From Enterobacteria phage vB_EcoM_IME339, in the sequence record MH051915: a stretch of 64,000 bases of DNA; one strand, written 5' to 3'. Shown here one piece after another: positions 4,593 through 28,823 of this stretch. Made by a program: the position numbers and the translations under genes. Position 1 is the first letter of the stretch. Every line of letters starts with the position of its first letter. The notes below the pieces were generated by a model. That model was not told where the DNA came from. It saw only the letters and a program-made list of their open reading frames with translations, and searched no databases.

Positions 4593-4856
4593 ATGGATAA
4601 TTACGGCGAACTGTTCAACTTCTTTATGAAATGCGTTTCAGAAGATTTCGGTCGTACAGTGAATGATATTAAAGTTATCGGTCCTGATCATCCGATGTTT
4701 GAAACTTACGCAGTAATGGGTAATGAAGATGGTCAGTGGTATACTGTAAAGGTTGTGATTAACATGTTTACAGCAGAAGGTTATGTTAAACTGTCTTCTA
4801 AAGTTTACCACGATAACGACGAAATCGCAGAAGAATATTTCAATAATATGAAATAA
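4593..4856 (+). CDS. hypothetical protein
   Basis: ORF track starts at in-frame TTG 4581; ATG 4593 with GGAG RBS 6 nt upstream chosen. Confidence 0.5.
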   Translation: MDNYGELFNFFMKCVSEDFGRTVNDIKVIGPDHPMFETYAVMGNEDGQWYTVKVVINMFTAEGYVKLSSKVYHDNDEIAEEYFNNMK

Positions 4857-4911
4857 GTTTACACAGGCTCATGATTGAGATATTATGAGCCTGTAACTTG
4901 AGGAGAACATA

Positions 4912-5310
4912 ATGAATATTGAAGATAAAGAAATGCGAGAGTTATATAATTCATTAACACCCGAACAACAAAAAGCTGCCAAAGAATTAGAGAAAGCTCT
5001 TAGTTTAAGCTTGACAAAAACTGATTGGGCCGCCGTGTATGAAGAAAAAATGAGGTCTGAAAATGAAGCTATCGAGAGAAATGAATGGATTGTAAACACC
5101 AAGATTAGTTCTGATGGCTGCTCTGTTGAGGTGTCAGCTGTAGTTAAAGGTACTCATGGCGAAGAATCATGGGGCTGGCATAATGAGGCAAACAAATATA
5201 TTGTTCTCTCAACGTCAAAAACTTATGGTCAAAAGGTTCCTGTATCCAAAGCTATTATTAAGCAAGCTCAATGGGAAGCCAATGAAATCTGTCTCGCAAA
5301 AATGAAATAA
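4912..5310 (+). CDS. hypothetical protein
   Basis: 132 aa ORF with gaggagaacataATG RBS. Confidence 0.5.
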   Translation: MNIEDKEMRELYNSLTPEQQKAAKELEKALSLSLTKTDWAAVYEEKMRSENEAIERNEWIVNTKISSDGCSVEVSAVVKGTHGEESWGWHNEANKYIVLSTSKTYGQKVPVSKAIIKQAQWEANEICLAKMK

Positions 5311-9895: not shown

Positions 9896-10435
9896 ATGAG
9901 AACATTTTTAACTGGTCCTTATCTATCCCTGATGAATGCTTTTACACACCATTCTGATGCTAGAGTAGAAGAAATTTGTAAAAACGATTATATCCCACCA
10001 TTTGAAGACTTACTCAAACAGTATTGCACACTTCGACTAGATGGTGGACGTCAATCTGGTAAATCAACTGCTGTGACTAACTTTGCTGCTAATTGGCTGT
10101 ATGACGGTGGAACAGTTATTGTTCTTTCTAATACTTCAGCTTACGCTAAAATTTCTGCGGGCCACATTAAAAAAGAATTTTCGCGTTATTCTAATGATGA
10201 TATTCGATTCCGCTTATTTACTGATTCTGTGCGCAGTTTTATTGGCAATAAAGGAAGCAAGTTCAGGGGTTTATTGCTTTCGCGAATTTTGTATATAATT
10301 GATGAGCCTGTTAAAGCTCCCGATATGGATAAAATTTATGATATTCATATTGACACTGTACATTACTGTTGCAATAGCAAGTGTTGCATTGGTGGTATTA
10401 CTCGCCCGCAGTTTTTCGTAATTGGAATGCAATGA
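9896..10435 (+). CDS. P-loop NTPase (terminase-like Walker A)
   Basis: Walker A LDGGRQSGKST and Walker B-like ILYIIDEP; ORF track starts 9848, ATG 9896 with RBS chosen. Confidence 0.5.
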   Translation: MRTFLTGPYLSLMNAFTHHSDARVEEICKNDYIPPFEDLLKQYCTLRLDGGRQSGKSTAVTNFAANWLYDGGTVIVLSNTSAYAKISAGHIKKEFSRYSNDDIRFRLFTDSVRSFIGNKGSKFRGLLLSRILYIIDEPVKAPDMDKIYDIHIDTVHYCCNSKCCIGGITRPQFFVIGMQ

Positions 10436-10761
10436 TGACAGATACGCAACTTTTCGAATATCTTTATTTTTCGCCAAAAACTATTAAAAATAAATTGGTG
10501 AATCATTTTGAAATTTTGGCAAATAACAACGTCTTGAGCGAATTTTATCCTAAGCAATACAAATTACAAAAAGGTGTATTCAAAGGATGCAGAGTTTTGT
10601 GTACTGCTCCTAATGCAAGATTAATGAATAAAATTCCATATTTTACCATGGAATTTATTGATGGACCTTTTAAAGGACTAATCACCCAAAGTTTAATGGC
10701 ATATGATTCTGAGCCATTTTTAATTAAAGAACAATCTTGGATAAATTTATTTTCTAATTGA
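10432..10761 (+). CDS. hypothetical protein
   Basis: ORF track 10381 overlaps upstream gene; internal ATG 10432 at upstream stop chosen. Confidence 0.45.
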
Positions 10762-10769
10762 GAGGTTAT

Positions 10770-11132
10770 ATGAAAGCATATCAAATTCTTGAAGGCACGC
10801 ATAAAGGTACTATTTATTTTGAAGATGGTATTCAAGCGCGAATTATTGTTTCTAAAACCTTTAAAGAGGACTCTTTTGTAGACCCAGAAATTTTCTATGG
10901 TTTGCATGCCCGTGAAATTGAAATTGAAACACAACCTACAGTTAAAATTGAAGGTGGTCAACACCTGAACGTTAACGTTCTGCGTCGTGAAACTCTGGAA
11001 GATGCAGTTAAGCATCCGGAAAAATATCCGCAGCTGACCATCCGTGTATCCGGTTATGCAGTTCGCTTTAACTCTCTGACTCCGGAACAGCAACGCGACG
11101 TTATTGCTCGTACCTTTACTGAGAGTTTGTAA
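10770..11132 (+). CDS. autonomous glycyl-radical cofactor (GrcA/YfiD-like; T4 Y06I equivalent)
   Basis: C-terminal ~60 aa [60 protein letters not shown] matches E. coli GrcA incl. glycyl-radical motif RVSGY. Confidence 0.85.
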
Positions 11133-11353
11133 TGGCAAAGATAATTATTGAAGGTTCTGAAGATGTGTTAAATGCTTTCGCCGAATGGTTTAGTAATTCA
11201 GGCGAACAGCAATTTAATGAAGCGTGGAACATGGGTGATATTAGTGGAATTTATCCTACGACAGAAATTTCTGTTCAAGGATATGGAATTCATGAACCTA
11301 TTCGTTTAGTTGAATATGATTTATGTACTGGTGAGGAAGTCAAATATGATTGA
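11132..11353 (+). CDS. hypothetical protein
   Basis: 73 aa ORF, TAATG junction with GrcA-like gene. Confidence 0.45.
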   Translation: MAKIIIEGSEDVLNAFAEWFSNSGEQQFNEAWNMGDISGIYPTTEISVQGYGIHEPIRLVEYDLCTGEEVKYD

Positions 11354-11612
11354 AGATATTAAGGGTTATAAGCCACATACTGAAGAGAAAATCGGTAAAG
11401 TGAATGCTATCAAAGATGCTGAAGTTCGTTTAGGACTTATCTTTGATGCTTTATATGATGAATTCTGGGAAGCACTAGATAATTGTGAAGACTGTGAATT
11501 CGCGAAGAATTATGCTGAAAGCCTTGATCAGTTAACTATTGCTAAAACTAAACTCAAAGAAGCCAGTATGTGGGCTTGTCGTGCTGTGTTCCAACCAGAG
11601 GAAAAATATTAA
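11346..11612 (+). CDS. small acidic protein at the T4 vs.4 (Acb2 anti-CBASS sponge) position
   Basis: 88 aa from ATG 11346 (ORF track 11310); assignment positional, sequence not verified. Confidence 0.45.
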
Positions 11613-11890
11613 TGGCTCAATTAAGCGCAGGGTTTGGTTATGAGTATTATACTGCCCCTCGTCGTGTATCTGTCGCTCCTAAGAAAATTCAAAGTCTTGA
11701 TGACTTCCAAGAAGTAGTCCGTAAAGCTTTCCAGGACTACGCACGTTATCTTAAAGAAGATTCACAGGACTGTCTCGAAGAAGATGAAATTGCTTACTAT
11801 GAGCAGCGTCTTGAACAGCTTAAAAACCTACATGAGGTTCGTGCAGAAGTTACAAAGTCTATGAATAAATTGATTAGATTTAAAGAATAA
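11612..11890 (+). CDS. hypothetical protein
   Basis: ATG 11612 overlapping upstream stop; 92 aa. Confidence 0.45.
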
Positions 11891-11925
11891 CTGTTTACTT
11901 TTCCTCTTGACTGTGGTATAATTTT
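11890..11925 (+). promoter_or_regulatory. T4-type early promoter upstream of regB
   Basis: ctGTTTACttttcctcttgactgtggTATAAT. Confidence 0.55.
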
Positions 11926-11949
11926 TCTATCAGTTAAGAGGAGAATAAC

Positions 11950-12411
11950 ATGACTATCAACACAGAAGTTTTTATCCGTCGAAATAAGCTCCGTCGTCAC
12001 TTTGAGTCGGAGTTTCGTCAAATTAACAATGAGATTCGTGAGGCATCAAAAGCAGCAGGGGTCTCATCGTTTCATCTAAAATATTCTCAACATCTTCTTG
12101 ATCGTGCAATTCAACGGGAGATTGATGAGACATATGTTTTTGAATTATTCCACAAAATAAAAGACCATGTTTTAGAAGTTAATGAATTCCTGAGTATGCC
12201 TCCACGCCCTGATATTGACGAAGATTTTATTGATGGTGTTGAATATCGTCCTGGGCGTTTAGAAATCACAGATGGAAATCTTTGGCTTGGATTTACAGTT
12301 TGTAAACCTAATGCGAAGTTCAAAGACCCGTCGCTTCAATGCAGGATGGCAATTATCAACAGTCGTCGTTTACCGGGAAAGGCTTCTAAGGCAGTAATTA
12401 AAACTCAATGA
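11950..12411 (+). CDS. regB: RegB-like site-specific endoribonuclease
   Basis: 153 aa, size and position (upstream of vs/tk) as T4 RegB; sequence recall moderate. Confidence 0.7.
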   Translation: MTINTEVFIRRNKLRRHFESEFRQINNEIREASKAAGVSSFHLKYSQHLLDRAIQREIDETYVFELFHKIKDHVLEVNEFLSMPPRPDIDEDFIDGVEYRPGRLEITDGNLWLGFTVCKPNAKFKDPSLQCRMAIINSRRLPGKASKAVIKTQ

Positions 12412-12418
12412 GGTAAGC

Positions 12419-12964
12419 ATGAGAAAAGCACTACTCGCTGGTCTATTGGCCATTTCTATGATGGCACATAGCTCCGAGCATACTTTCAGTAATGTCCAAC
12501 TCGATAACATGCGTTACGCGTATCAATTCGGGGAACAATTTTCTAAGGATGGAAAATATAAAACACACAAAAATATCCACAAGAGCGGATTAGGCCATAT
12601 AATGGCTGCTATTTTATGGCAAGAAAGCTCTGCCGGAGTTAATTTAAAATCTAAACCAAAGCATCACGCTTATGGAATGTTCCAAAATTATTTGCCTACT
12701 ATGCGAGCGAGAGTTAAGGAACTTGGTTATAATATGACCGATGCTGAAATAAAAAGAATGTTGAATAAACGGTCCAATTCAGCTTCCTGGGCGTACATTG
12801 AACTTTCTTATTGGTTAAATATACATAAGGGCGATATAAGAAAGGCAATATCCTCTTATAATTCGGGATGGAATGTTAAAGCAGGTTCTAAATATGCTTC
12901 TGAAGTCCTAGAAAAGGCTAATTACCTTAAAAATAATAAACTTTTGGAAATAGTAAATGACTAA
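12419..12964 (+). CDS. secreted protein with lytic-transglycosylase (SLT)-like motifs
   Basis: N-terminal signal peptide MRKALLAGLLAISMMAHS; motifs WQESSAG...YGMFQN resemble SLT-domain E-S ... GLMQ. Confidence 0.6.
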   Translation: MRKALLAGLLAISMMAHSSEHTFSNVQLDNMRYAYQFGEQFSKDGKYKTHKNIHKSGLGHIMAAILWQESSAGVNLKSKPKHHAYGMFQNYLPTMRARVKELGYNMTDAEIKRMLNKRSNSASWAYIELSYWLNIHKGDIRKAISSYNSGWNVKAGSKYASEVLEKANYLKNNKLLEIVND

Positions 12965-13304
12965 AATTTTGGTTTTATGTATAGGATTAATTTCATTTTC
13001 TGCTTCTGCGTTAGCAAATACATCATATACTGAAATTAGAGAGTATGTAAATCGCACTGCGGCAGATTATTGTGGGAAAAATAAAGCATGCCAAGCTGAA
13101 TTTGCGCAGAAATTAATATATGCATATAAAGACGGAGAAAGAGATAAATCAAGCAGATACAAAAACGATACATTATTAAAACGATATGCTAAAAAGTGGA
13201 ATACCTTAGAATGTTCAGTTGCGGAGGAGAAAGATAAAGCCGCTTGTCATTCAATGGTTGACCGTTTGGTAGATTCTTATAATCGAGGATTGAGTACTAG
13301 ATGA
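12957..13304 (+). CDS. small secreted protein at the T4 vs position
   Basis: 115 aa with signal peptide MTKILVLCIGLISFSASALA; Cys-containing; identity with T4 Vs not verified. Confidence 0.5.
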   Translation: MTKILVLCIGLISFSASALANTSYTEIREYVNRTAADYCGKNKACQAEFAQKLIYAYKDGERDKSSRYKNDTLLKRYAKKWNTLECSVAEEKDKAACHSMVDRLVDSYNRGLSTR

Positions 13305-13768
13305 TTGTAAAATATATCAAGGGCGATATTGTCGCCCTTTTCGCTGAAGGTAAAAATATTGCGCATGGATGCAATTGTTTTCATACTATGGGTTCAGGCG
13401 TAGCGGGTCAATTAACCAAAGCTTTCCCTAAAATTTTGGAAGCTGATAAATTACAGACTGAATGGGGTGATGTAACTAAACTTGGTTCTTACTCAGTCTA
13501 TGAAAAATACTTTAGGACTCATAAAGCGTATTGCTTCAACCTTTATACTCAATTTCAACCAGGGCCAAATTTTGAGTATTCCGCTTTAATGAATTGTATG
13601 TTAGAATTAAATGAGTTTGGTGAAAATAAACTGATTAAACCTACAATCTATATGCCTAGGATTGGTGCAGGCATAGGTAAAGGGAACTGGGATATTATTG
13701 AGGGGATTTTAGATACATATTCCTCTAAATTAGAAATTGTGATTGTTGATTGGGAACCATTATTATGA
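13301..13768 (+). CDS. macro-domain protein (putative ADP-ribose binding/hydrolase)
   Basis: KGDIVALFAEGKNIAHGCNCFHTMGSGVAGQL and IYMPRIGAGIGKGNW resemble macro-domain GDI..VNAAN..GGGV and G-I-Y-G motifs. Confidence 0.6.
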   Translation: MIVKYIKGDIVALFAEGKNIAHGCNCFHTMGSGVAGQLTKAFPKILEADKLQTEWGDVTKLGSYSVYEKYFRTHKAYCFNLYTQFQPGPNFEYSALMNCMLELNEFGENKLIKPTIYMPRIGAGIGKGNWDIIEGILDTYSSKLEIVIVDWEPLL

Positions 13769-18616: not shown

Positions 18617-19626
18617 TGAAAACAGTAATGAAAAGCTATTTTGGTAGTCATCTTTATGGAACTTCTACTCCAGAATCTGATGTAGATTTTAAAGAAATCT
18701 TTGTTCCTCCTGCTCGCGATATTCTTATCGGAAATGTTAAAGAGCATATGAGTAAAAACACTAACAACACATCATCTAAAAACACTAAAGATGATATTGA
18801 CCACGAACTATACAGTCTTAAGTATTTCTTTAAATTAGCAGCAGATGGTGAAACTGTAGCATTGGATATGCTCCACACTCCACCTGAACTTGTAGTTAAA
18901 TCTGATTTGCCTGATGTATGGAAGTTTATTCAAGATAATCGTTCTCGTTTTTATACGACTAACATGAAATCCTATTTAGGGTATGTTCGCAAGCAAGCTT
19001 CTAAATACGGTGTTAAGGGTTCTCGTTTGGCCGCATTACGTGATGTATTGAAAGTAGTTAATCAAATCCCTGAGCAATGGGTTGATTACCAAGAAGACGG
19101 CTCCATTAAGCAGCGTCGCACTAAAGTTGAAGATATTAAGCATCGTCTTCCAGAGAACGAATTCTGTGAATGGGTATTCCATAATCATGAGAAAACAGGT
19201 CCACAAACGTTCTACACTGTGTTGGGTCGTAAATATCAAACAACGCTTTCTCTTATTGAGCTTAAGCAGTCACTGAATAAATTAGATGCTGAATACGGCG
19301 AACGTGCTCGTAAGGCTGAAGCGAATGAGGGCATCGACTGGAAAGCTCTGAGTCATGCTTGTCGTGGTGGACTCCAACTATTGGAAATTTACAAAACTGG
19401 TGACTTAGTCTATCCACTTCAAGACGCTCCATTTATTCTCGACGTGAAGTTGGGTAAACATCCATTTAAAACTGTTCAAGAGTTTTTGGAAGATGTGGTC
19501 GATCAAGTAGAAGCAGCATCCATTGAAGCTTCTAAGAACGGTATGCAGCAAAAAGTAGACATGGGTTTCTGGGATGACTTCCTTGAGAGGGTTTATCTTG
19601 AAAACCATCGAAGTTATTATAAATGA
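18613..19626 (+). CDS. nucleotidyltransferase-fold protein (Pol-beta-like NTase motif), function unknown
   Basis: 337 aa; N-terminal GSHLYGTSTPESDVDF fits minimal NTase G[SG]-x9-13-[DE]x[DE]; ATGA overlap with upstream gene. Confidence 0.6.
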   Translation: MMKTVMKSYFGSHLYGTSTPESDVDFKEIFVPPARDILIGNVKEHMSKNTNNTSSKNTKDDIDHELYSLKYFFKLAADGETVALDMLHTPPELVVKSDLPDVWKFIQDNRSRFYTTNMKSYLGYVRKQASKYGVKGSRLAALRDVLKVVNQIPEQWVDYQEDGSIKQRRTKVEDIKHRLPENEFCEWVFHNHEKTGPQTFYTVLGRKYQTTLSLIELKQSLNKLDAEYGERARKAEANEGIDWKALSHACRGGLQLLEIYKTGDLVYPLQDAPFILDVKLGKHPFKTVQEFLEDVVDQVEAASIEASKNGMQQKVDMGFWDDFLERVYLENHRSYYK

Positions 19627-19651
19627 TAGGGAGCCTTCGGGCTCCCTTTTT
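19627..19651 (+). terminator. intrinsic terminator
   Basis: agggagccttcgggctccc + tttttt. Confidence 0.7.
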
Positions 19652-19669
19652 TATTTCAAAATTTTTTCA

Positions 19670-19708
19670 CAAAACGGTTTACAAGCATAAAGCTTTATGG
19701 TACTATAC
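19670..19708 (+). promoter_or_regulatory. T4-type early promoter in repeated cassette
   Basis: ttttcacaaaacgGTTTACAagcataaagctttaTGgTACTAT. Confidence 0.6.
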
Positions 19709-19740
19709 AACTATCAACTGATACGGATTTGGAGAATAAA
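19695..19740 (+). repeat. conserved promoter-leader cassette (PeSL-like), copy 2
   Basis: tggtactatacaactatcaactgatacggatttggagaataaaATG. Confidence 0.6.
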
Positions 19741-20709
19741 ATGAAAACTGTAACTATCAATAAGGGTATCTACTTCGGTAAAGAAATCTCTGGAACTTTT
19801 GAGCTCTTAGGCGAATGGTTCCCAGATAATGCTCCGGTAGATGCACAAGGAGATGGTAAAGTTTTTGTTGAAATTGACGGTAAACGTCGCGGTGTTTGGG
19901 TTTACAAATCAGATATTTCATATGATGGTGTAAAGGTTGAAGAAGTTAAAGAATCGTATGAAGATATGAAAACCCGCATTAATAAAAGATTTAATGTTAT
20001 GGGAATGATGACGAATGGTATTATTAATGGAAATATTCGTTCATTAATTATCTCTGGCGCAGCAGGTATTGGTAAAACGTATTCTTTAGATAAAGCTTTG
20101 AATAAAGCAAATGATATTGGATACATTGAATATAAAAGCATTAATGGTAAAATCTCTGGTATTGGTCTTTATGAGCAGCTTTGGAATAATCGTGAAGAGA
20201 ATTCTGTCCTTTTGATTGATGATGTGGATGTTTTCTCTGATATGGACATTCTTAATCTTCTAAAAGCCGCTCTGGACACCGGAGAGACCCGTAAAGTCTG
20301 CTGGAGCACTGCGTCTTCTTACTTAGAAGAAAAAGGCATTGAGCGTGAGTTTGAATTTAAAGGAACGATTGTTTTTATCACAAACGTTGACATTGACCGC
20401 GAATTAGACCGTGGTACTAAACTTGCTCCACACTTACAAGCATTAGTGTCCCGCTCGGTTTATTTAGATTTGGGTGTTCACACTAATGAAGAAATTATGG
20501 TCAGGGTTGAAGATGTTATTCTTTCAACTGACATGATGCAAAAGCGCGGTCTTTCTGATGAAGAAACTTATAAAGCATTATCATGGATGAAAGTTAATGT
20601 TAATCGTTTACGCAATGTTTCACTGCGTACTGCTCTTTATCTTGCTGACTTTATTATGACCGATAAAAACGGTTGGGAAGAAATCGCTGAGGTTACTCTT
20701 CTGAAATAA
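19741..20709 (+). CDS. P-loop ATPase (AAA+-like)
   Basis: Walker A SGAAGIGKT, Walker B LLIDDVD, sensor-like FITN; ORF track starts at in-frame TTG 19729. Confidence 0.6.
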   Translation: MKTVTINKGIYFGKEISGTFELLGEWFPDNAPVDAQGDGKVFVEIDGKRRGVWVYKSDISYDGVKVEEVKESYEDMKTRINKRFNVMGMMTNGIINGNIRSLIISGAAGIGKTYSLDKALNKANDIGYIEYKSINGKISGIGLYEQLWNNREENSVLLIDDVDVFSDMDILNLLKAALDTGETRKVCWSTASSYLEEKGIEREFEFKGTIVFITNVDIDRELDRGTKLAPHLQALVSRSVYLDLGVHTNEEIMVRVEDVILSTDMMQKRGLSDEETYKALSWMKVNVNRLRNVSLRTALYLADFIMTDKNGWEEIAEVTLLK

Positions 20710-20810
20710 TTCATAAGAGGACTTCTATGACAAAAAGGCAGTTCAGAAATAGATTATATGGACTGCCATTAAAAAGATGACTAGAATTAAACTGGTGAAT
20801 GGAGGTAGTG

Positions 20811-21113
20811 ATGTTATACTCAAAGGCTCGTGAAATTTACGAAACTAAAATTAAAGAAGCAGTATTTCAGTTCGCAACGACAATGCGATGGACAAATGAC
20901 TGGGAGTATTCAAAAAATCATAAGAAGCCCATGGTGACAAGAAAGGCTCATATGTTAGTGTTAATAGACCGTGAGCAGATTAAAGCCCGAGAAGCCCTCC
21001 AGAATCATAAAAAGGCTGCCTTTGAATGGTTTATGGATAACACTGCTCCTGAGACCAAGAAAGCGGTAAGTGCATGGTTCAGTGGAAAAAATTGTGAAAG
21101 AAGTTTCTTTTAG
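20811..21113 (+). CDS. hypothetical protein
   Basis: ATG 20811 with ggaggtagtgATG RBS (ORF track 20799). Confidence 0.5.
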   Translation: MLYSKAREIYETKIKEAVFQFATTMRWTNDWEYSKNHKKPMVTRKAHMLVLIDREQIKAREALQNHKKAAFEWFMDNTAPETKKAVSAWFSGKNCERSFF

Positions 21114-21147
21114 TGGTTTACAAGACTGTTCCTCTGTGGTACTATAC
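21114..21147 (+). promoter_or_regulatory. T4-type early promoter in repeated cassette
   Basis: gGTTTACAagactgttcctctgTGgTACTAT; overlaps 3' end of upstream ORF. Confidence 0.55.
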
Positions 21148-21173
21148 AACTATCAACTACGGAGGAACACAAA
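21135..21173 (+). repeat. conserved promoter-leader cassette (PeSL-like), copy 3
   Basis: tggtactatacaactatcaactacggaggaacacaaaATG. Confidence 0.55.
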
Positions 21174-21701
21174 ATGAACGCTAAAGATATTTTCAACTTG
21201 GTAAATTACAACGATGGTAAATTTAAATCTGAAGCGCAAAGCAAGTTCTTTAACGACATCTCAATCGGAGGTGAAATCACTGTTGATGGAGGACAAATTT
21301 ACAAATCCCGTTGGAATTGGATCGTTATTATTGATGAGATCGGTATTGTAGAAATTTACAAAAATACGAATAAAAATCGTACATTGCACTGGTCTCGTGA
21401 TACTAACGAACAGTACAAAAAGGATAAAGCATCTAAATTATCTCGTGTAACTCAAGAAGATATTGAGTTCATCAAGAAAGATATTTTAATGTATGATAAT
21501 TTAATTGCTGAAGAGCAAGCTGTTATTGATAAATTTGACGAGATTAAAGCTTCTCGTGAAATTCCTGATTTTATGAAAGAATCGGTAAATGAACGATACA
21601 CTCTCATTTCAGAGCGTATTGAAACTTACAAAAAGCAAAGAGCTGAACGCCAAAATACTCTTCGGAAGTTTGAAGAACGGTTAAAGACGGTACTCGCATA
21701 A
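21174..21701 (+). CDS. hypothetical protein
   Basis: 175 aa ORF following cassette. Confidence 0.55.
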   Translation: MNAKDIFNLVNYNDGKFKSEAQSKFFNDISIGGEITVDGGQIYKSRWNWIVIIDEIGIVEIYKNTNKNRTLHWSRDTNEQYKKDKASKLSRVTQEDIEFIKKDILMYDNLIAEEQAVIDKFDEIKASREIPDFMKESVNERYTLISERIETYKKQRAERQNTLRKFEERLKTVLA

Positions 21702-21756
21702 CCGCTTTATACCAAGGATGGTATAATGGTTCTAAGCCCTTTTAATTGAGATTATT

Positions 21757-22164
21757 ATGAAACAGTTGATAATTAAAAGATTGAATTTATTGATATGTTG
21801 TTTATGTGTAGTAGTTGCATATGGTTATTACGCAATTAATGATTATATGCATTATAAAGATTATGATGTTACTGTAGTTAATACCATTACAGGAACACAA
21901 GGAAAAGGGTCTAGTTTATCGTTTATTGCCGTATATGAACTCAAAGATGGTTATAGATTTGGTGAATATATTTCCCCAGAGATGTATTCTTCAATAGAAA
22001 AAGGTGATAATATTACTGTAAGTTTACGTCCTTTCGACGTAAAACAGACATGGTTTGATAATATTGTTTGGTTCTTTGGAATGGTATTAGTTCAATCTGT
22101 GTGTGGTGCTTATATAGTCTGTTCCATCTTATTCTGTATATTTAGTAAAATTGAAATTGAGTGA
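21757..22164 (+). CDS. membrane protein
   Basis: 135 aa with N- and C-terminal hydrophobic helices. Confidence 0.5.
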   Translation: MKQLIIKRLNLLICCLCVVVAYGYYAINDYMHYKDYDVTVVNTITGTQGKGSSLSFIAVYELKDGYRFGEYISPEMYSSIEKGDNITVSLRPFDVKQTWFDNIVWFFGMVLVQSVCGAYIVCSILFCIFSKIEIE

Positions 22165-22229
22165 GGAAAATATGTCAGTAGTAATTAATAATGTCAATGC
22201 AGTAATTAAATCTTTAGTTAATAAAAAAA

Positions 22230-23063
22230 ATGATGAATGAATGGACTGTATTTCGTCGTGGAGAGCCAGATAAATTTTTTCATAGATTTAACCCAACTTT
22301 GGATTTGAATGTTATCGACAGAGATGTTCATGCTGAAATTTTAGATAAGTTTAAAGTTGATATTGGATTTGGATTAGAAAAACATTTACAGCGAACAAAT
22401 GGATCTGGAATGAGTTTATCTAATCGCATTATGAAAGCCCTTAATAAAATTGGAGCGTTGTCTCGTATTAACGCGAGTGAAATTCTTCGTAATTATAATA
22501 AAGGATATGACCTTTATGGTCGACTAATGCCGAAGTTATCATTTGACCAAATGATTGCAGATTTGTGGGAAAATCAAAGACGATTATTAGCATTAGGCGC
22601 TCGATTAGCTAAAGGTCTAGATAAACAAATGATTTTTAAGACCAATAATACAGAAGACCTTAAATGCTTTAAATTTAGTATTCGTGGAGATGATTATTAC
22701 ATCAGAGCTCACTCTACAGATTATGTTAATATGGGTCATCATCTCTGTTTAGCTTTTGAAGTTTTAAAAGAAGCTGGAACATTAGAATATTCATCTGGGG
22801 CAAAATGTCCTATTGGTTCAAGTTGTATTTTAATTTATCGCCCGGATGAATCCAGTTCAACTACATTGCCTACGAAACCTGTACCAGTTCGTAGTAACGA
22901 AAAACATTCTGAACAAATTGATTATTTTAATAAACAGATTGAAGAGCTGAATATTTCTATTCAACAATATGACGATGAAATTTTCAGACTATCTGGATTG
23001 AGTAGTAAAGCTAAATCTGAGCGTGAAAAGTTAATTAAAATCGTTGATTTACTTAAATCTTAA
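22230..23063 (+). CDS. coiled-coil-tailed protein, tandem paralog family member 1
   Basis: 277 aa; internal LWENQRRLLALGARLAKGL box and C-terminal coiled coil. Confidence 0.55.
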   Translation: MMNEWTVFRRGEPDKFFHRFNPTLDLNVIDRDVHAEILDKFKVDIGFGLEKHLQRTNGSGMSLSNRIMKALNKIGALSRINASEILRNYNKGYDLYGRLMPKLSFDQMIADLWENQRRLLALGARLAKGLDKQMIFKTNNTEDLKCFKFSIRGDDYYIRAHSTDYVNMGHHLCLAFEVLKEAGTLEYSSGAKCPIGSSCILIYRPDESSSTTLPTKPVPVRSNEKHSEQIDYFNKQIEELNISIQQYDDEIFRLSGLSSKAKSEREKLIKIVDLLKS

Positions 23064-23071
23064 GGAATACC

Positions 23072-24100
23072 ATGAAAACTCGTTCTCAAATTGAAGATAT
23101 GGTTCGTAATGCCAGCTATACTCGTGATGTTATGACATTTTTGTGTGAAAATAATTTAGACCCTGATAAAGTTAATCATGTTATTCATCACTTTAAGTAT
23201 ACAAATAGCAGTGAATGGATACGTAATTTTAGTAAAGCAGGGTATATTACACAAATGACGGCTCGTGAGCAGCTCACAGATTTCTGTAAAACTATTGATT
23301 ATAAAAATCCTCTATTTGTTCAAGGCGTTGGTCAAAGTAAGGTCGATTTATCATCTGGATTTTTCAATCCAAATCATTATCGTATTGAATGGAGATTTAT
23401 TGCTCTGTTCCGTAGACAATTAAAGCAAATTTTATCAACTGCGAGTCGATTGAAAGGTTCTGATATTAACTTAAAGAACCTGAAATTTGATGGTTATACT
23501 CTTCAGATGGAAGTAAGACCATTAAAAGAAAATAACAGAACTGCACGAATTAGCTTTAAACCTAATACAAAAAATTCTCTTTCAATTTGCGAATGCCTTA
23601 AATCGCAGTTGACAGAAGCATTTAAGTATATGGATGTTGTTGCTGCAGTTCATTCTAAGATTTTACCTCGTTTTGAGCGAAATTGGGAACATACAACAAC
23701 GTATGAACTTGATATGATCGTTTCATTTAAATATGAATTTTTGAGAAAGGACGAAGTTACACAAGAGAAAAAGCAAGAAGTGCAAGATAACTTAAATTTA
23801 AATTTATCCAATTACTCATCAAACGATCCTAAATGTTGGATGTACAGTTCAAGTAGTACAGATGCATGGAAACTTAATAAAGTGAGTTTTCTTCCTACTG
23901 AAAATTCAAATTTTAAACCTGTAGAAAAATGGCACGCCGATGCGATTGAGAAGTCTCTTAAAGCAGTAGATGATGAACTTGTTAAAGCAACTAATGAAAT
24001 GTTAGAAGCTGAAAAGGTGTTAGAACAAGCACAATCAAGAGTTCAAAATCTGACAAAGCAACGTTCTAAACTGAACAATGCACTAAATGCACTGAACTAG
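23072..24100 (+). CDS. coiled-coil-tailed protein, tandem paralog family member 2
   Basis: 342 aa; MKTR N-terminus; box WRFIALFRRQLKQILSTASRLKG; C-terminal coiled coil. Confidence 0.6.
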   Translation: MKTRSQIEDMVRNASYTRDVMTFLCENNLDPDKVNHVIHHFKYTNSSEWIRNFSKAGYITQMTAREQLTDFCKTIDYKNPLFVQGVGQSKVDLSSGFFNPNHYRIEWRFIALFRRQLKQILSTASRLKGSDINLKNLKFDGYTLQMEVRPLKENNRTARISFKPNTKNSLSICECLKSQLTEAFKYMDVVAAVHSKILPRFERNWEHTTTYELDMIVSFKYEFLRKDEVTQEKKQEVQDNLNLNLSNYSSNDPKCWMYSSSSTDAWKLNKVSFLPTENSNFKPVEKWHADAIEKSLKAVDDELVKATNEMLEAEKVLEQAQSRVQNLTKQRSKLNNALNALN

Positions 24101-24131
24101 TTTACTTTGCCACAAGGATGTGGTATAATGT
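24098..24131 (+). promoter_or_regulatory. T4-type early promoter
   Basis: taGTTTACtttgccacaaggatgtggTATAAT. Confidence 0.55.
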
Positions 24132-24157
24132 TCTTACTTTCTACTGAGGAGATTATT

Positions 24158-25159
24158 ATGACTCGTAACGAATATATCAAATCATTCAATAGCGTTATTG
24201 ATGATAAAGTTAAACCCATGTCTAGTCAGAATGCTGTTCTTTCTATTATCAATCAATGGCTCAGCAGTATTGATGCAAGTATTGTTTCTTCCAGTAAATT
24301 TATTCATGAAGTTCGTGAAATTTCTAGCCGCGTAGATAAAGATGATATTAAGATAACCTTTAAAGGGTCTCGTCTTCTTTCATATTTGGTTAATCGGGAT
24401 ATTCTTGGTAATTTTGGGAAAGAAATTAAACGAACTAAAGGTGTAATAGGATACAATTGGTTCGGTGATGTTAATTCTTATCATCTTAATATTAAAGAAG
24501 ACCCTAAGAATATTTTTACTCGTCGTTGGATTAGTAATTTCAGACTTTTCAAGAAGCAACTTTTAAAATCAGCTTCTAAATTATGTTATGGTGATTATCG
24601 TCAAATTCATCCTTTGGCTTCTGATATGATTATCGTAAAAGAATATGAGCTTGATAAAAATAAAGTAGCTATTTTTGTGAATTATGAATTTTTTACACCA
24701 GAAGCTAACCAAAAGAATATTAATAAATTTTTCTCAATTGCTAGCACTATAACTCATCAATTAGAAACGGCTTTGGATTGTATGGAAACTGTAAAAAGTA
24801 TTCATACATATCCTTTCAAAAATATGGGTGGTTGGGAAGGATATAAAATTGTAATTAGTCTTCGTGAAGTGAAATGTGCGTACTCACCGACTGATAAAGA
24901 AATTTACCAACAAAAATGTGAAGAAATTGTGAATACTCCTAAAGAAGAAACTACCCTTGAGGAACTAATGGAATGTCTTGACGATTCACCTGAACCGGTA
25001 GAAATTCGTCCAGAAGTTATTGCACTAGAAAAAGCTTATAAAGAAGTTCTAGAAATTTCTAATAAAGCGCAGAAAGAATATGAGCAGGCTAAAAGGATTT
25101 GGGAAGAATCTGTTAATCGCCTGGATCGTCTTGAACAAGCTTTACAGTTAATTAAGTAA
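24158..25159 (+). CDS. coiled-coil-tailed protein, tandem paralog family member 3
   Basis: ATG 24158 downstream of promoter (ORF track 24107); box WISNFRLFKKQLLKSASKLCYG; C-terminal coiled coil. Confidence 0.6.
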   Translation: MTRNEYIKSFNSVIDDKVKPMSSQNAVLSIINQWLSSIDASIVSSSKFIHEVREISSRVDKDDIKITFKGSRLLSYLVNRDILGNFGKEIKRTKGVIGYNWFGDVNSYHLNIKEDPKNIFTRRWISNFRLFKKQLLKSASKLCYGDYRQIHPLASDMIIVKEYELDKNKVAIFVNYEFFTPEANQKNINKFFSIASTITHQLETALDCMETVKSIHTYPFKNMGGWEGYKIVISLREVKCAYSPTDKEIYQQKCEEIVNTPKEETTLEELMECLDDSPEPVEIRPEVIALEKAYKEVLEISNKAQKEYEQAKRIWEESVNRLDRLEQALQLIK

Positions 25160-25211
25160 TTTAAAGCCAAGGATGGCTCGGAGTATAAATCATTAACCAA
25201 GTGAGAAGAAC

Positions 25212-26141
25212 ATGAAAACTCGTAAACATTATATTGATTATTTTGACAGTCTTATTACTAAACACCGTAATTATCAGATCGGACACAGAGCAGTAATCAA
25301 TAATATTCTTCGTGATTTCCTTCAATATGTTGGCCAGGAAAATCATATCTGTAAAGATACTCAAAACGCTTATTCTCATTCGTTAGGCAATTTGCTTGAA
25401 TGGTTTAAACGTTCTCGTATGTTATCTTCTACTGTAGCTCGCGATAACATTAAAAACTTTATGAAGCCAAGCTTCATTAAATCTGCGACATCTATAACCG
25501 ATTTGGTTGAATTTACTATTGTTAACGATGTTAAAAAGACCCATTTAGCCGATTGGTTATCTACCATTCCTGAAACTAAATTTGCTGATAAATTTGCTTG
25601 TCAGTTCAATGACCAAGTGAATATGCTTTTTAAGCATGCTCGCAAACTATTTACCGCAGGCGATGACCGTACAAATACAGTTCATGTTAAGGATTGGGTT
25701 ATTGCTGATGAAGTAACACACAAGCCAGGTGGTTCATCAGTGGTAATTAATATCCAAGTTCCTTATTATTACTCACGTAATCTTGGCACCATGAACTCTA
25801 AAGAAATTAATAAGCACAACAAAACTATTCGTTCGTTGTCTTATAAACTCCGCATGATGTTAAAAATCATGGACGTAGTAGAAATGTATGACGAAATCGA
25901 AGATAATGGTTCAATGTTATACAGTTCACGTATTCTAATTAAACTGAAGAACCCTAATACATATAAGACAGTTGTAAAAGAGCCTAAAGTAGAAAAAATT
26001 GATAACTTGAGCGAAGAACGTGAATATCTCAATGCTCGTTTGATTGAAGTTGAAGCCCAGATTGCCGAACACACCAAATTGTTAAAAGCTCTTAATGCAA
26101 AAGCAAATGGTTTACGTAATGCTATTGAGGTATTGAAATGA
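25212..26141 (+). CDS. coiled-coil-tailed protein, tandem paralog family member 4
   Basis: 309 aa; MKTR N-terminus; C-terminal coiled coil [37 protein letters not shown]. Confidence 0.6.
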   Translation: MKTRKHYIDYFDSLITKHRNYQIGHRAVINNILRDFLQYVGQENHICKDTQNAYSHSLGNLLEWFKRSRMLSSTVARDNIKNFMKPSFIKSATSITDLVEFTIVNDVKKTHLADWLSTIPETKFADKFACQFNDQVNMLFKHARKLFTAGDDRTNTVHVKDWVIADEVTHKPGGSSVVINIQVPYYYSRNLGTMNSKEINKHNKTIRSLSYKLRMMLKIMDVVEMYDEIEDNGSMLYSSRILIKLKNPNTYKTVVKEPKVEKIDNLSEEREYLNARLIEVEAQIAEHTKLLKALNAKANGLRNAIEVLK

Positions 26142-26506
26142 AAAAGCGTCTATTAGAAGATATTGCCGAAGCTTCAGATTTTCCTGAATGGACTCCATGC
26201 GCTGGGTTTGATAAAGGACTGTTAGTTACTGACGATTTAGATTTTAAACCTCCAGCCTGGGATGCTATTATGGCTATGGTTGAACGTCGCGAAAGGGCTT
26301 CTAAAAACGTTCCTAATTGTCCTGAATGCGGTACTGAACAGGTTCAATTGATTAACTGGCGTAAACCGGAACTTGAATATAAATGCCGTCATTGTAAACA
26401 CAAATTTAGCAAGCATGCTCCGGAAATGGTTAAATTACCTGACTCTACTGAGTTCTTTAAAGAACTTGCGAGTGTTCAACCAATGCCTAATAATATTTTG
26501 GATTAA
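26138..26506 (+). CDS. zinc-ribbon protein
   Basis: 122 aa with CPECG...CRHCKHKF pattern. Confidence 0.5.
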
Positions 26507-26507
26507 A

Positions 26508-26750
26508 ATGACCAAGCGTAAAGAATATATGGAGACTGCTGAAAAAGCAGTCCGTGAATTAGCAATAGCGTATTATAATGAACATGGTAAATTTCCTGAT
26601 AGATACAGCGTGCTTAAATCTGCTTTAACTCGTTCATATAAAAATATGCTATCAGAAGTAAGTGATATTATATACAAACATAAAGAACAAACGGGCCAAA
26701 GTCTTGATTACGACGAGACTTTTAAACAAGTACTAGGAATTAAGGAATAA
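26508..26750 (+). CDS. hypothetical protein
   Basis: ATG 26508 (ORF track 26373 overlaps upstream gene). Confidence 0.45.
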
Positions 26751-26751
26751 T

Positions 26752-27015
26752 ATGTTTAAAGTATATGGTTATGATAGCAACATCCATAAATGTGTGTATT
26801 GCGATAATGCAAAACGTCTTTTGACCGTGAAGAAACAGCCGTTTGAATTTATCAACATTATGCCGGAAAAAGGTGTTTTTGATGATGAGAAAATCGCTGA
26901 GCTTCTGACGAAACTGGGTCGTGATACTCAAATTGGACTGACGATGCCACAAGTATTTGCTCCTGATGGAAGTCATATTGGTGGATTTGACCAATTGCGG
27001 GAATACTTTAAATGA
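26752..27015 (+). CDS. nrdC: glutaredoxin/thioredoxin NrdC
   Basis: 87 aa with VYCDNAKRLL active-site CxxC-type motif (CVYC); matches remembered T4 NrdC. Confidence 0.85.
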   Translation: MFKVYGYDSNIHKCVYCDNAKRLLTVKKQPFEFINIMPEKGVFDDEKIAELLTKLGRDTQIGLTMPQVFAPDGSHIGGFDQLREYFK

Positions 27016-27227
27016 TGCTCGAAGGAACTGATTATATCCATGACTACCGCGGAAGCGCGGTATATGTAGGTGATGAGGTTGCAGTTTACTATGGGTATGG
27101 AACTTTGATGACAGCCAAGGTTATTCAAATTAAAAATAATCGTGCTAAACTCGAAGTTTATTATTCTAACGGTGAAAAGTCTATTTCTAAATGGAAATAT
27201 GGCGATTGTATGGTCAAACTGGGGTAA
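27012..27227 (+). CDS. hypothetical protein
   Basis: 71 aa ORF, ATGA overlap with nrdC. Confidence 0.45.
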   Translation: MMLEGTDYIHDYRGSAVYVGDEVAVYYGYGTLMTAKVIQIKNNRAKLEVYYSNGEKSISKWKYGDCMVKLG

Positions 27228-27229
27228 AT

Positions 27230-27400
27230 ATGATTTACGATATTAATGTATCAAGAACTCCGTCAATGGTTACTATTCCTGCTGAAGAATTAGATCGTCT
27301 TCAGAAAATTGAAGAACTTCTTTGGGAAATTGAATCTGATTTGCCATCAGGATTAGAATCCTGGATTGATTATGAAGAACTTAATAAATTGCGAAATTAA
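27230..27400 (+). CDS. small acidic hypothetical protein
   Basis: ATG 27230 (ORF track 27191). Confidence 0.4.
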   Translation: MIYDINVSRTPSMVTIPAEELDRLQKIEELLWEIESDLPSGLESWIDYEELNKLRN

Positions 27401-27410
27401 TTGGTGAAAA

Positions 27411-27731
27411 ATGAATATTGAAAATAAATTAGATGTTGATGCAGTTCTGAGTGAAATCATCGAAGACCATGATGCATTTTCAGAAAATTATGATTTCGAT
27501 TTTTCGGATTATCTTAAACCTATCGAAATAGAAGACTGGGTGCAAGATGGTAAATGCCAATATCGCCAGTGTGTTTATTTTAGTCCAAAACACAATGTAC
27601 ATGTTTCCGTAAATGAAACTCGCTCAGGTTCTTATCATTCTGACTGGTATTATGCAGTTCCGACTGTTGAACTAGTCGAGCCCCGTGAACGTGTAGTAAC
27701 TCAGACAGTACGAGAATGGATTACGCTATAA
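27411..27731 (+). CDS. hypothetical protein
   Basis: 106 aa ORF. Confidence 0.5.
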   Translation: MNIENKLDVDAVLSEIIEDHDAFSENYDFDFSDYLKPIEIEDWVQDGKCQYRQCVYFSPKHNVHVSVNETRSGSYHSDWYYAVPTVELVEPRERVVTQTVREWITL

Positions 27732-27854
27732 AACCTTGGTGGGCGGCTAGATGGGAAACTGTAGAGCCAGAGCCGGAAGAACCGGTTTACACTGATGAAG
27801 AAACAGTATATAATGAACCGACGATAAATGACATAATTGATATGGAGATGGGAC

Positions 27855-28301
27855 ATGATTACAGTAGATAAGTGGTTTAGAATTAATCGTGCTGATAAAG
27901 GGTTGTGTAATTACTGGCCTGAACTTAGTGCAGGTACTGTCTTTAAAGTTCGTGAACTTGCAAAAGAATGTGAAGATGACATAGAACCTGATACTGGAAT
28001 TATTGAAATTGAACTTTCTGATGGAAAGATTATTAACATCTATGATAAGCCAATTACGTATTGGTGCTTGTGGAATACTGAATCCGCAGAAAATGGCGAA
28101 ATTGAAGAAGTTGTAGAACGAATTGATCAAGTTATTCGGAAGCCTGAAGCCGCTTTTCAAGGTGAACGTATTTCATACGCATTATCTAAATTAGCTGCAC
28201 AAGAAAATAACGATGGCTATGAAGGAAATTTAATGCAAGCCGCGGCAGAATATATTGAATGGCTTGAAACCCAAATTTCTTTTTCTGACCGAGCGTTTTA
28301 A
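27855..28301 (+). CDS. hypothetical acidic protein
   Basis: ATG 27855 (ORF track 27837). Confidence 0.5.
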   Translation: MITVDKWFRINRADKGLCNYWPELSAGTVFKVRELAKECEDDIEPDTGIIEIELSDGKIINIYDKPITYWCLWNTESAENGEIEEVVERIDQVIRKPEAAFQGERISYALSKLAAQENNDGYEGNLMQAAAEYIEWLETQISFSDRAF

Positions 28302-28349
28302 TACTTGAAATAATAAATACCCTTATCTATTTAAGGTAAGGGTTTTATT

Positions 28350-28823
28350 ATGTTATTGACTGGCAAATTATACAAAGAAGAAAAACAGAAATTTTATAAT
28401 GCACAAAACGGTAAATGCTTAATTTGCCAACGAGAACTAAATCCTGATGTTCAAGCTAATCACCTCGACCATGACCACGAATTAAATGGACCAAAAGCAG
28501 GAAAGGTGCGTGGATTGCTCTGTAATCTTTGCAATGCAGCGGAAGGTCAAATGAAGCATAAATTTAATCGTTCTGGCTTAAAGGGACAAGGTGTTGATTA
28601 TCTTGAATGGTTAGAAAATTTACTTACTTATTTAAAATCCGATTACACCCAAAATAATATTCACCCTAACTTCGTTGGAGATAAATCAAAGGAATTTTCT
28701 CGTTTAGGAAAAGAGGAAATGATGGCTGAGATGCTTCAAAGAGGATTTGAATATAATGAATCTGACACTAAAACACAATTAATAGCTTCATTTAAGAAGC
28801 AGCTTAGAAAGAGTTTAAAATGA
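28350..28823 (+). CDS. 49: endonuclease VII (Holliday junction resolvase, gp49)
   Basis: 157 aa; zinc-site CLICQ...C..C; HNH-like LDHDHELNG; matches remembered T4 endo VII. Confidence 0.92.
   Translation: MLLTGKLYKEEKQKFYNAQNGKCLICQRELNPDVQANHLDHDHELNGPKAGKVRGLLCNLCNAAEGQMKHKFNRSGLKGQGVDYLEWLENLLTYLKSDYTQNNIHPNFVGDKSKEFSRLGKEEMMAEMLQRGFEYNESDTKTQLIASFKKQLRKSLK

Follow-up and report, generated by a model that had tools for sequence, protein, structure and literature searches.

Four tandem genes, nrdC.6 to nrdC.3, of Enterobacteria phage vB_EcoM_IME339: a probable accessory protein family with a published anti-Dsr1 member

Introduction

What are four consecutive genes of similar build doing side by side in the nrdC region of a T4-like phage, and do they descend from one protein? 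We address this question for positions 22230-26141 of a 64,000-nucleotide stretch of DNA (hereafter, the window) from the Tequatrovirus (T4-like) Enterobacteria phage vB_EcoM_IME339, record MH051915. A first-pass annotation, made from the sequence alone, had described these genes as a diversifying tandem family in a hyperplastic region, had guessed at host-interaction or anti-defence functions, and could not match any member to a characterized protein. We found that one of the four corresponds to T4 nrdC.5, a published anti-Dsr1 gene, and that all four probably belong to a single superfamily. Our overall proposal, to which we assign a probability of roughly 0.55, is that the array represents a four-copy expansion of one Straboviridae accessory protein, which would act early in infection as an oligomeric binder directed against host immune proteins.

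Identity of the four genes

Alignment with the annotated T4 genome (AF158101.6) showed that the window runs as the reverse complement of the T4 map. Four consecutive open reading frames (ORFs) start on the + strand at 22230, 23072, 24158 and 25212, as first described, and are orthologous to T4 nrdC.6, nrdC.5, nrdC.4 and nrdC.3 by virtue of the same position and 60-97% identity. We label them A, B, C and D, respectively (lengths in amino acids, aa):

22230-23063, + strand: gene A, nrdC.6 orthologue, 277 aa; phrog_2257; PF26899 in relatives; the weakest superfamily member
23072-24100, + strand: gene B, nrdC.5 orthologue, 342 aa; Pfam DUF7235 at 401.8 bits; phrog_2351
24158-25159, + strand: gene C, nrdC.4 orthologue, 333 aa; phrog_1435; PF26897 in relatives
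25212-26141, + strand: gene D, nrdC.3 orthologue, 309 aa; phrog_1435 and PF26897

Position and alignment identify gene B as the orthologue of T4 nrdC.5, through which T4 overcomes the Dsr1 sirtuin defence. Srikant, Guegler and Laub (eLife 2022, PMC9391042) described a T4 clone with compensatory deletions that was unable to plate on ECOR17; deletion of dsr1 in ECOR17 restored plating of this clone, dsr1 of ECOR17 on a plasmid protected MG1655, and T4 nrdC.5 alone, expressed from a plasmid, restored infection on MG1655 carrying dsr1 of ECOR17. The nrdC.5 of that study is the 340-aa gene orthologous to gene B, so the statement that no member could be matched to a characterized protein has to be given up. 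Dsr1 itself, a sirtuin-domain defence protein, joins a SIR2 NADase to a TPR sensor; this sensor, shared with Avs7, reportedly recognizes phage major capsid proteins (2026 preprint, PMC12803255). Our literature search for an anti-Dsr1 mechanism or a renaming of NrdC.5 returned nothing past the 2022 paper. Since nrdC.5 has been published as an anti-Dsr1 gene, the guessed anti-defence or host-interaction function holds for one member, through its T4 allele, and reaches the other three by inference: homology, locus and elevated protein divergence make nrdC.3, nrdC.4 and nrdC.6 candidates.

The T6 version of gp49.2 inhibits the OLD defence nuclease (2026, PMC13096335). An orthologue is present here at 27411-27731, 97% identical to T4 gp49.2, and a second published counter-defence gene therefore stands 1.3 kb downstream of the array. 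Another gene nearby, pin, carries a protease-inhibitor annotation, and the locus as a whole is rich in counter-defence genes.

Homology among the four proteins

Pfam splits the four genes into three families, PF26897, DUF7235 (PF23882) and PF26899. PF26899 is carried by all 105 gene A relatives, PF26897 by all C/D relatives found and DUF7235 by those found for gene B. In PHROGs, C and D both fall into phrog_1435 (3.7e-166 and 1.1e-116), B into phrog_2351 and A into phrog_2257 (7.3e-143). The DUF7235 match of gene B extends over the full length with an expect value (E) of 2.8e-120, far above the gathering score of 30 bits, and was the only match above curated cut-offs in Pfam, NCBIfam and PADLOC; DUF7235 was not detected in A, C or D, and 6 of the 90 C/D-family members gave weak matches to it (best E 0.012). 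Sub-threshold hits to DUF3905, PHL, integrase SAM-like, BrxC and PgrA were inconsistent, some of them lying on the coiled-coil tail, and were set aside.

Among the four proteins, BLASTP detected the C-D pair alone (27% identity over 159 aa, E 5e-7). For hhalign, profiles were built from family alignments of 259 database relatives, with 60 column shuffles as the null. C-D reached a probability of 98.4% (E 1e-14), and the scores of B-C (29.3, z-score 4.8) and A-D (28.3, z-score 4.9) were attained in 0 of the 60 shuffles; B-D was marginal, while A-B and A-C stayed at the level of the shuffled columns. Iterative hidden Markov model (HMM) searches were run with the tails removed to exclude a coiled-coil artefact, against 456 sequences comprising all + strand ORFs with a length of 100 aa or more at ten loci, together with the 259 relatives. 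Seeded with C and D, the iteration recruited B, next A, and then stopped. The B-core HMM without its tail immediately matched six C-family members (E 4e-5 to 5e-4) and aligned with the window C protein along nearly its entire core. Iterations seeded with B and with C and D ended with an identical set of 274 sequences that spans all four families, and recruited none of the unrelated ORFs of the ten loci; the ~260-aa protein recurrent in other genera (see below), Acj61p118 and NrdC.10, taken as negative controls, were not related.

Gene A was first reached from the B, C and D seeds at E 2e-4 to 7e-4, and it aligned to the superfamily profile over ~85 residues only. The A-seeded iteration collected only A-like proteins and three single-copy bridge proteins: one of 309 aa from PM2 (E 1.3e-5), one of 338 aa from CIP9 (E 1.8e-8) and one of 292 aa from fHe-Yen9-01 (E 4.5e-4). 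The same three proteins were also matched, in the same region, from the B/C/D side, and the alignment of the PM2 protein with the A core extends over 190 residues (E 6e-6). Because the A-seeded iteration does not arrive at B, C or D, nrdC.6 is linked to the other three only transitively.

Overall, we consider the paralogy of nrdC.4 and nrdC.3 certain on sequence grounds; profile searches place nrdC.5 with these two, and nrdC.6 is probably a superfamily member through transitive links. The paralogy initially claimed for all four thus stands strongly for C-D, by profile search for B, and for nrdC.6 only via the bridge proteins. The suggested pairwise alignments bear out the same gradation, with C-D at high probability and B-C and A-D above shuffles, but not A-B and A-C. 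Three separate database families would thereby merge into one Straboviridae-specific superfamily, which is new here and a modest extension of known biology.

Common architecture

The layout first described, with a divergent N-terminus, an internal box and a heptad-rich tail, holds in all four genes, the tail measuring ~45-55 aa, and two further common motifs were found. All features below are on the + strand:

22437-22502, +: A motif 1, ALNKIGALSRINASEILRNYNK (profile alignment)
22551-22619, +: A box, MIADLWENQRRLLALGARLAKGL (profile alignment, core-only HMM)
22914-23060, +: A heptad tail, 49 aa, end KLIKIVDLLKS (0/500 shuffles)
23225-23290, +: B motif 1, NFSKAGYITQMTAREQLTDFCK (profile alignment)
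23387-23461, +: B box, EWRFIALFRRQLKQILSTASRLKGS (profile alignment)
23597-23650, +: B motif 3, LKSQLTEAFKYMDVVAAV (profile alignment)
23930-24097, +: B heptad tail, predicted helix 283-341, predicted local distance difference test score (pLDDT) 75-93, end KLNNALNALN
24356-24421, +: C motif 1, TFKGSRLLSYLVNRDILGNFGK (profile alignment)
24521-24595, +: C box, RRWISNFRLFKKQLLKSASKLCYGD (model helices 119-130 and 132-142)
24749-24802, +: C motif 3, ITHQLETALDCMETVKSI (profile alignment)
25010-25156, +: C heptad tail, end RLEQALQLIK
25401-25466, +: D motif 1, WFKRSRMLSSTVARDNIKNFMK (profile alignment)
25587-25664, +: D box, DKFACQFNDQVNMLFKHARKLFTAGD (profile alignment)
25836-25889, +: D motif 3, LSYKLRMMLKIMDVVEMY (profile alignment)
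26007-26138, +: D heptad tail (shuffle test, alignment)

Of all elements, the box is the best preserved: its four versions fall into shared columns in hhalign, and core-only HMMs of different families match the bridge proteins precisely there. The profile alignments are all collinear, with box, motif 1 and motif 3 in shared columns. In C motif 1, residues F68, K69, S71, R72 and L74 are invariant throughout the C and D families, and the motif 3 cores read AFKYMDVV, ALDCMETV and MLKIMDVV. Within families, conservation is highest in the tail and in the stretch from motif 1 to the box, and lowest in the N-terminus and the linker. The remark that two of the proteins begin with MKTR is true of B and D; since C starts with MTRNEY and the distant NrdC.5 relative P0057 with MITREEF, a short N-terminal motif appears to be common to B, C and D.

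An uninterrupted a/d heptad pattern occupies the last 49 aa of each protein, and its score was reached by none of 500 shuffles for the A, B and D tails and by one of 500 for the C tail. AlphaFold predicted one long terminal helix in C (285-332) and B (283-341). The endings share the pattern L-x-x-A-(L/I)-x-x-L-(K/N); therefore the tails look related, beyond mere similarity of type. NrdC.8, tried as a further member, was rejected: its C-terminus is helical but has a weaker heptad pattern (14/500 shuffles), and hhalign gave E 0.33.

Structure models

The AlphaFold model of NrdC.4, built from 90 sequences, was good (pLDDT 86, predicted template modelling score 0.69). It comprises a helical domain (1-84), an alpha/beta domain (88-235) of which the box forms the first two helices, a low-confidence linker and a helix (285-332). 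Foldseek against predicted viral structures returned 18 hits at E <=1e-3, all of them uncharacterized proteins of T4-like phages except for three entries without a name. Apart from NrdC.4 fragments, the hits were mostly 300-370 aa long, and their hosts were Acinetobacter, Klebsiella, Pectobacterium, Erwinia, Serratia, Yersinia and Enterobacter. A 309-aa PM2 protein was among them (E 7e-7), as were E5E4A1 (330 aa) and E5E4A2 (304 aa) of Acinetobacter phage Acj61, whose lengths equal those of the adjacent genes Acj61p120 and p121. Both fall between nrdC and nrdC.10, in the slot that the array occupies, and the heptad tail of p120 ends in LNKALEIMML; no significant sequence similarity was found between Acj61p120 or p121 and the window proteins.

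The NrdC.5 model has the same core order as that of NrdC.4, namely a helix (box), two strands, a helix, a beta hairpin, a linker and a long helix, at pLDDT 52.9. The two models have three common BFVD neighbours, which we take as supportive only. The check proposed earlier, Foldseek on AlphaFold models, rested on a good model for C, with matches mainly to proteins of T4-like phages, and a poor one for B.

A sequence search of the PDB with the C/D profile gave one chance-level match to a designed protein. Resemblance to the tail terminator/tail completion fold (lambda gpU-like) was rejected, the scores being low, with 3-12% identity and nitroreductases and designed proteins mixed in; we treat it as a generic two-layer alpha/beta likeness, and the array proteins differ from lambda gpU-like tail terminators in being early, non-structural and equipped with extra domains. 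We found nothing enzyme-like in the family, neither a fold nor a motif.

Distribution and copy number

The region shares 97.6% identity with Shigella phage ESh26, and 655 phage records match it, mostly Escherichia and Shigella phages. When the C/D profile was run exhaustively with HMMER against 1.84 billion cluster representatives, 11 proteins matched, and none gave a bridge to other protein kinds. Named relatives of the three families come mostly from T4-like phages or enterobacterial assemblies.

Counted by sequence methods between nrdC.10 and nrdC, the family has four members in the window and in T4 (Tequatrovirus), three in vB_EcoM_CUA3 (a record without genus), two in AV109 (Mosigvirus), one each in PM2, KP1, CIP9 and fHe-Yen9-01, and none in Acinetobacter phage DLP1 or Aeromonas phage avDM4. 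The slot of Acinetobacter phage Acj61 holds the tandem pair mentioned above. The description of the region as hyperplastic is apt: in this synteny comparison across T4-like genomes, gene content between nrdC.10 and nrdC differed in every genus examined, with family copies ranging from 0-1 to 4.

A different protein of ~260 aa recurs at the locus (in positions of each compared locus, PM2 11117-11902, CIP9 11807-12577, fHe-Yen9-01 12648-13439 and DLP1 10408-11217) and has no detectable relation to the NrdC.3-6 superfamily. KP1 carries an ORF of similar size at 12295-13083 of its locus.

Divergence from T4 and rearrangements

All evolutionary figures come from pairwise comparison of the window with T4. 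The flanking genes have 98-100% protein identity and a ratio of non-synonymous to synonymous substitution rates (dN/dS) of 0.00-0.07. Within the array, the values are:

nrdC.6: 97.5% identity, dN/dS 0.05
nrdC.5: 92.8% identity over 331 aa, dN/dS 0.18
nrdC.4: 90.1% identity, dN/dS 0.25
nrdC.3: 60.3% identity, synonymous rate (dS) about 1, dN/dS 0.30

The term "diversifying" is therefore justified in part: nrdC.5, nrdC.4 and nrdC.3 (0.18-0.30) exceed the flanks (<=0.07), but no gene-wide positive selection is seen and nrdC.6 is conserved. What these comparisons point to in nrdC.5, nrdC.4 and nrdC.3 is relaxed or episodic change together with allele replacement, without gene-wide positive selection. 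At 25212-26506, nrdC.3 and nrdC.2 share 60% and 57% protein identity with T4, and the neighbouring genes 90-100%; such divergence between conserved neighbours indicates a recombinational allele swap. NrdC.2 has 122 aa here, with weak, sub-threshold matches to CxxC zinc-ribbon families.

Several rearrangements affect the family members themselves. In most relatives nrdC.6 opens with 19 codons (MSVVINNVNAVIKSLVNKK) that an A8 run at 22222-22229, A7 in T4, throws out of frame in the window, so nrdC.6 must restart at ATG 22230. They correspond to a short ORF:

22172-22240, + strand: short ORF, MSVVINNVNAVIKSLVNKKNDE followed by a stop, the in-frame NrdC.6 N-terminus in most relatives

The in-frame N-terminus is seen in the 296-aa relatives P0059-P0068 and in P0058; the A8 shift may be genuine or may stem from a sequencing error in the homopolymer. 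In T4 (~4800-4930 of the locus compared, from AF158101.6), the NrdC.6 coiled-coil tail (…ISIQQYDDEIFRLSGLSSKAKSEREKLIKIVDLLKS) lies in another frame, and T4 carries a tail-less NrdC.6, because the annotated T4 protein ends in unrelated residues. In Shigella phage Sf25 (P0058), NrdC.6 has 378 aa with an internal direct duplication of ~100 residues (IRAHSTDYVNMGHH … QIEEL). A 167 kb metagenomic contig (P0056) encodes a 299-aa in-frame nrdC.5::nrdC.3 fusion with nrdC.4 deleted; NrdC.5 from about residue 147 onward is joined to NrdC.3 from the box onward, the junction being out of homology register.

Expression signals and neighbouring genes

The order in the window is nrdC.11, nrdC.10, nrdC.9, nrdC.8, nrdC.7, nrdC.6, nrdC.5, nrdC.4, nrdC.3, nrdC.2, nrdC.1, nrdC, 49.2, 49.1, pin, 49. 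The gaps between A and B, B and C, and C and D measure 8, 57 and 52 nucleotides, and D shares an ATGA overlap with the next gene. Gene C starts at the ATG after a GAGGAG ribosome site; the ORF list has a longer version from TTG 24107. One site bears on expression:

24100-24129, + strand: early-type promoter-like site, GTTTAC-N18-TATAAT with a TG extension, in the nrdC.5/nrdC.4 gap (sequence match)

It lies 28 nucleotides 5' of the nrdC.4 ATG and agrees with the T4 early-promoter consensus, which supports, at the level of sequence, the earlier remark that one of the genes has its own early promoter. No minus-strand ORF longer than 78 aa was found within the array region, and an Rfam scan of 19000-28500 returned no RNA family.

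Between nrdC.11 and nrdC.10, a hairpin at 19628-19647 has a perfect 8-bp GC-rich stem (AGGGAGCC TTCG GGCTCCCT) followed by a T-run and looks like an intrinsic terminator; a promoter-like TTTACA…TACTAT follows at 19678. The protein of nrdC.10 (19729-20709) has a GAAGIGKT motif, of the kind typical of P-loop NTPases, and is conserved far more widely than the array: by tblastn it matches 1310 phage records, including Vibrio, Aeromonas, Acinetobacter, Xanthomonas and Agrobacterium phages and phages with 320-490 kb genomes. Many records wrongly label it "thioredoxin". Downstream, at 27012-27400 between nrdC and 49.2, T4 gene 49.3 has no counterpart, and two small ORFs (71 and 69 aa) are found there.

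Discussion

We propose that one Straboviridae-specific accessory protein, residing in a fixed nrdC.10-nrdC slot, was expanded to four copies in one lineage. The copies would have kept a layout of a variable N-terminal helical region, a conserved alpha/beta core holding motif 1, the box and motif 3, a variable linker of low confidence in the models and a heptad helix of 45-55 aa. These are early genes, and upstream early promoters presumably drive the array, together with the putative extra early-type promoter before nrdC.4. The tail would oligomerize the protein, and the variable surfaces would bind a host immune protein stoichiometrically, ahead of the late phage proteins that trigger it. In the case of NrdC.5, the sensor or the NADase of Dsr1 would be blocked before the capsid protein appears, while nrdC.3, nrdC.4 and nrdC.6 may have diverged towards further alleles or different defence proteins. 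We favour a stoichiometric, oligomeric early binder because nothing enzyme-like was found.

Several points weigh against this proposal. Functional evidence concerns one gene of the four and consists of genetic complementation in T4, not in this phage; the anti-Dsr1 phenotype is known for the T4 allele, from which gene B differs at ~7% of residues. Oligomerization and direct binding of Dsr1 are steps that we infer. The tie of nrdC.6 to the other three is one-directional as well as transitive, its own iteration never getting to B, C or D, and at dN/dS 0.05 this gene evolves as slowly as the flanking ones. Values of dN/dS below 1 are no proof of an arms race. The structural comparison covers the models of B and C only, and since the NrdC.5 model, made from its own shallow alignment, is poor (pLDDT 52.9), any structural equivalence of B and C is tentative and the NrdC.5 Foldseek hits are weakly informative.

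The behaviour of nrdC.6 raises the question of whether only nrdC.5, nrdC.4 and nrdC.3 are true paralogues, with nrdC.6 an unrelated protein of comparable size that happens to have a coiled-coil tail, its box being similar by convergence or chance. The A-B and A-C alignments at shuffle level, the failure of the A seed to reach the other families and the short alignment of A (~85 residues) in the superfamily profile would all fit such a view. Still, we regard it as unlikely, given the A-D alignment (z-score 4.9, 0/60 shuffles) and the three bridge proteins that are significant from both sides in overlapping regions; besides, the 309-aa PM2 protein that aligns to the A core has its counterpart in a 309-aa PM2 Foldseek match of NrdC.4, and motif 1, box and tail ending of A follow the order of the other three. 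It might also be supposed that the array encodes general early host-takeover or regulatory proteins, binding nucleic acid or host machinery, for example, with the anti-Dsr1 effect of NrdC.5 being indirect. Our literature search indeed turned up no mechanism for NrdC.5, nrdC.6 is as conserved as its housekeeping neighbours, and the N-terminal helical region of NrdC.3 resembles an integrase SAM-like domain below threshold (Pfam E 0.057; NCBIfam E 0.0017). However, the SAM-like hits fall far short of the curated cut-offs (PF02899 14.1 bits vs 22.3; PRK00283 17.7 bits vs 279) and occur in only 8 of 90 family members (best E 0.051), so this domain was rejected. Moreover, the genes are dispensable on laboratory E. 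coli, where deletions are viable, the family is confined to T4-like phages (11 of 1.84 billion representatives match the C/D profile), and the array sits among known counter-defence genes, which together make a takeover role quite unlikely.

Finally, the four proteins could be subunits of one hetero-oligomeric complex with a single function, held together by their related tails, which are of the same length class and heptad register and share a common ending; the genes, too, adjoin one another, co-oriented and with short gaps. We find this very improbable, since copies vary from 1 to 4 between genera and nrdC.5 on its own, expressed from a plasmid, was enough to complement the T4 deletion clone. 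In the T4 reference strain a frameshift has removed the NrdC.6 tail, and the P0056 contig represents a natural phage with an in-frame nrdC.5::nrdC.3 fusion and no nrdC.4.

Returning to the proposed expansion of an early immune-protein binder, we may compare the array with known systems. T4 NrdC.5 (DUF7235/PF23882) is the direct counterpart of gene B, in the same position between nrdC.6 and nrdC.4; C and D, and less surely A, appear to be distantly paralogous to it and to share its domain order and tail, although they are assigned to other families (PF26899 and PF26897; phrog_2257 and phrog_1435). DSAD1 of SPbeta-like phages, a small protein, blocks DSR2, a SIR2-NADase immune sensor, reportedly by direct binding. 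As a phage inhibitor directed at a SIR2 NADase, it would be a functional analogue of NrdC.5, and the mechanism of the array is likened to the DSAD1-DSR2 case; neither sequence nor structural similarity to DSAD1 was found. Like the array, gp49.2 and Pin are early, dispensable, Straboviridae-specific and located in the nrdD-to-mobD stretch, and both came to light through loss or amplification under defence pressure. They differ in being unrelated in sequence, ~100-160 aa long and single-copy, without a coiled-coil tail.

It is tempting to go further and suppose that an ancient slot protein served as a modular, coiled-coil-oligomerized inhibitor scaffold for pattern-recognition immune proteins of the host, namely those with a TPR sensor (Dsr1 and Avs7-type), repeatedly duplicated, as in the four Tequatrovirus copies and the Acj61 pair, with each copy disarming a different receptor or allele. 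On this view the array would be readable as a host-range determinant of T4-like phages. We offer this as a speculation that is more probably wrong than right.

Conclusions

In the databases, the four genes are spread over three families that are treated as unrelated and have no assigned function. Our analysis does not reveal a new kind of system; the nrdC.5 link, nevertheless, makes NrdC.3, NrdC.4 and NrdC.6 concrete counter-defence candidates. Single-copy forms in Klebsiella, Enterobacter, Pectobacterium, Yersinia and Acinetobacter phages are further candidates against Dsr1 variants and sensor-NADase systems, and the domain map of variable head, conserved core and presumably oligomerizing tail could be used for chimera design. 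For phage therapy, T4-like phages rank among the leading candidates, with a host range largely set by accessory counter-defence genes.

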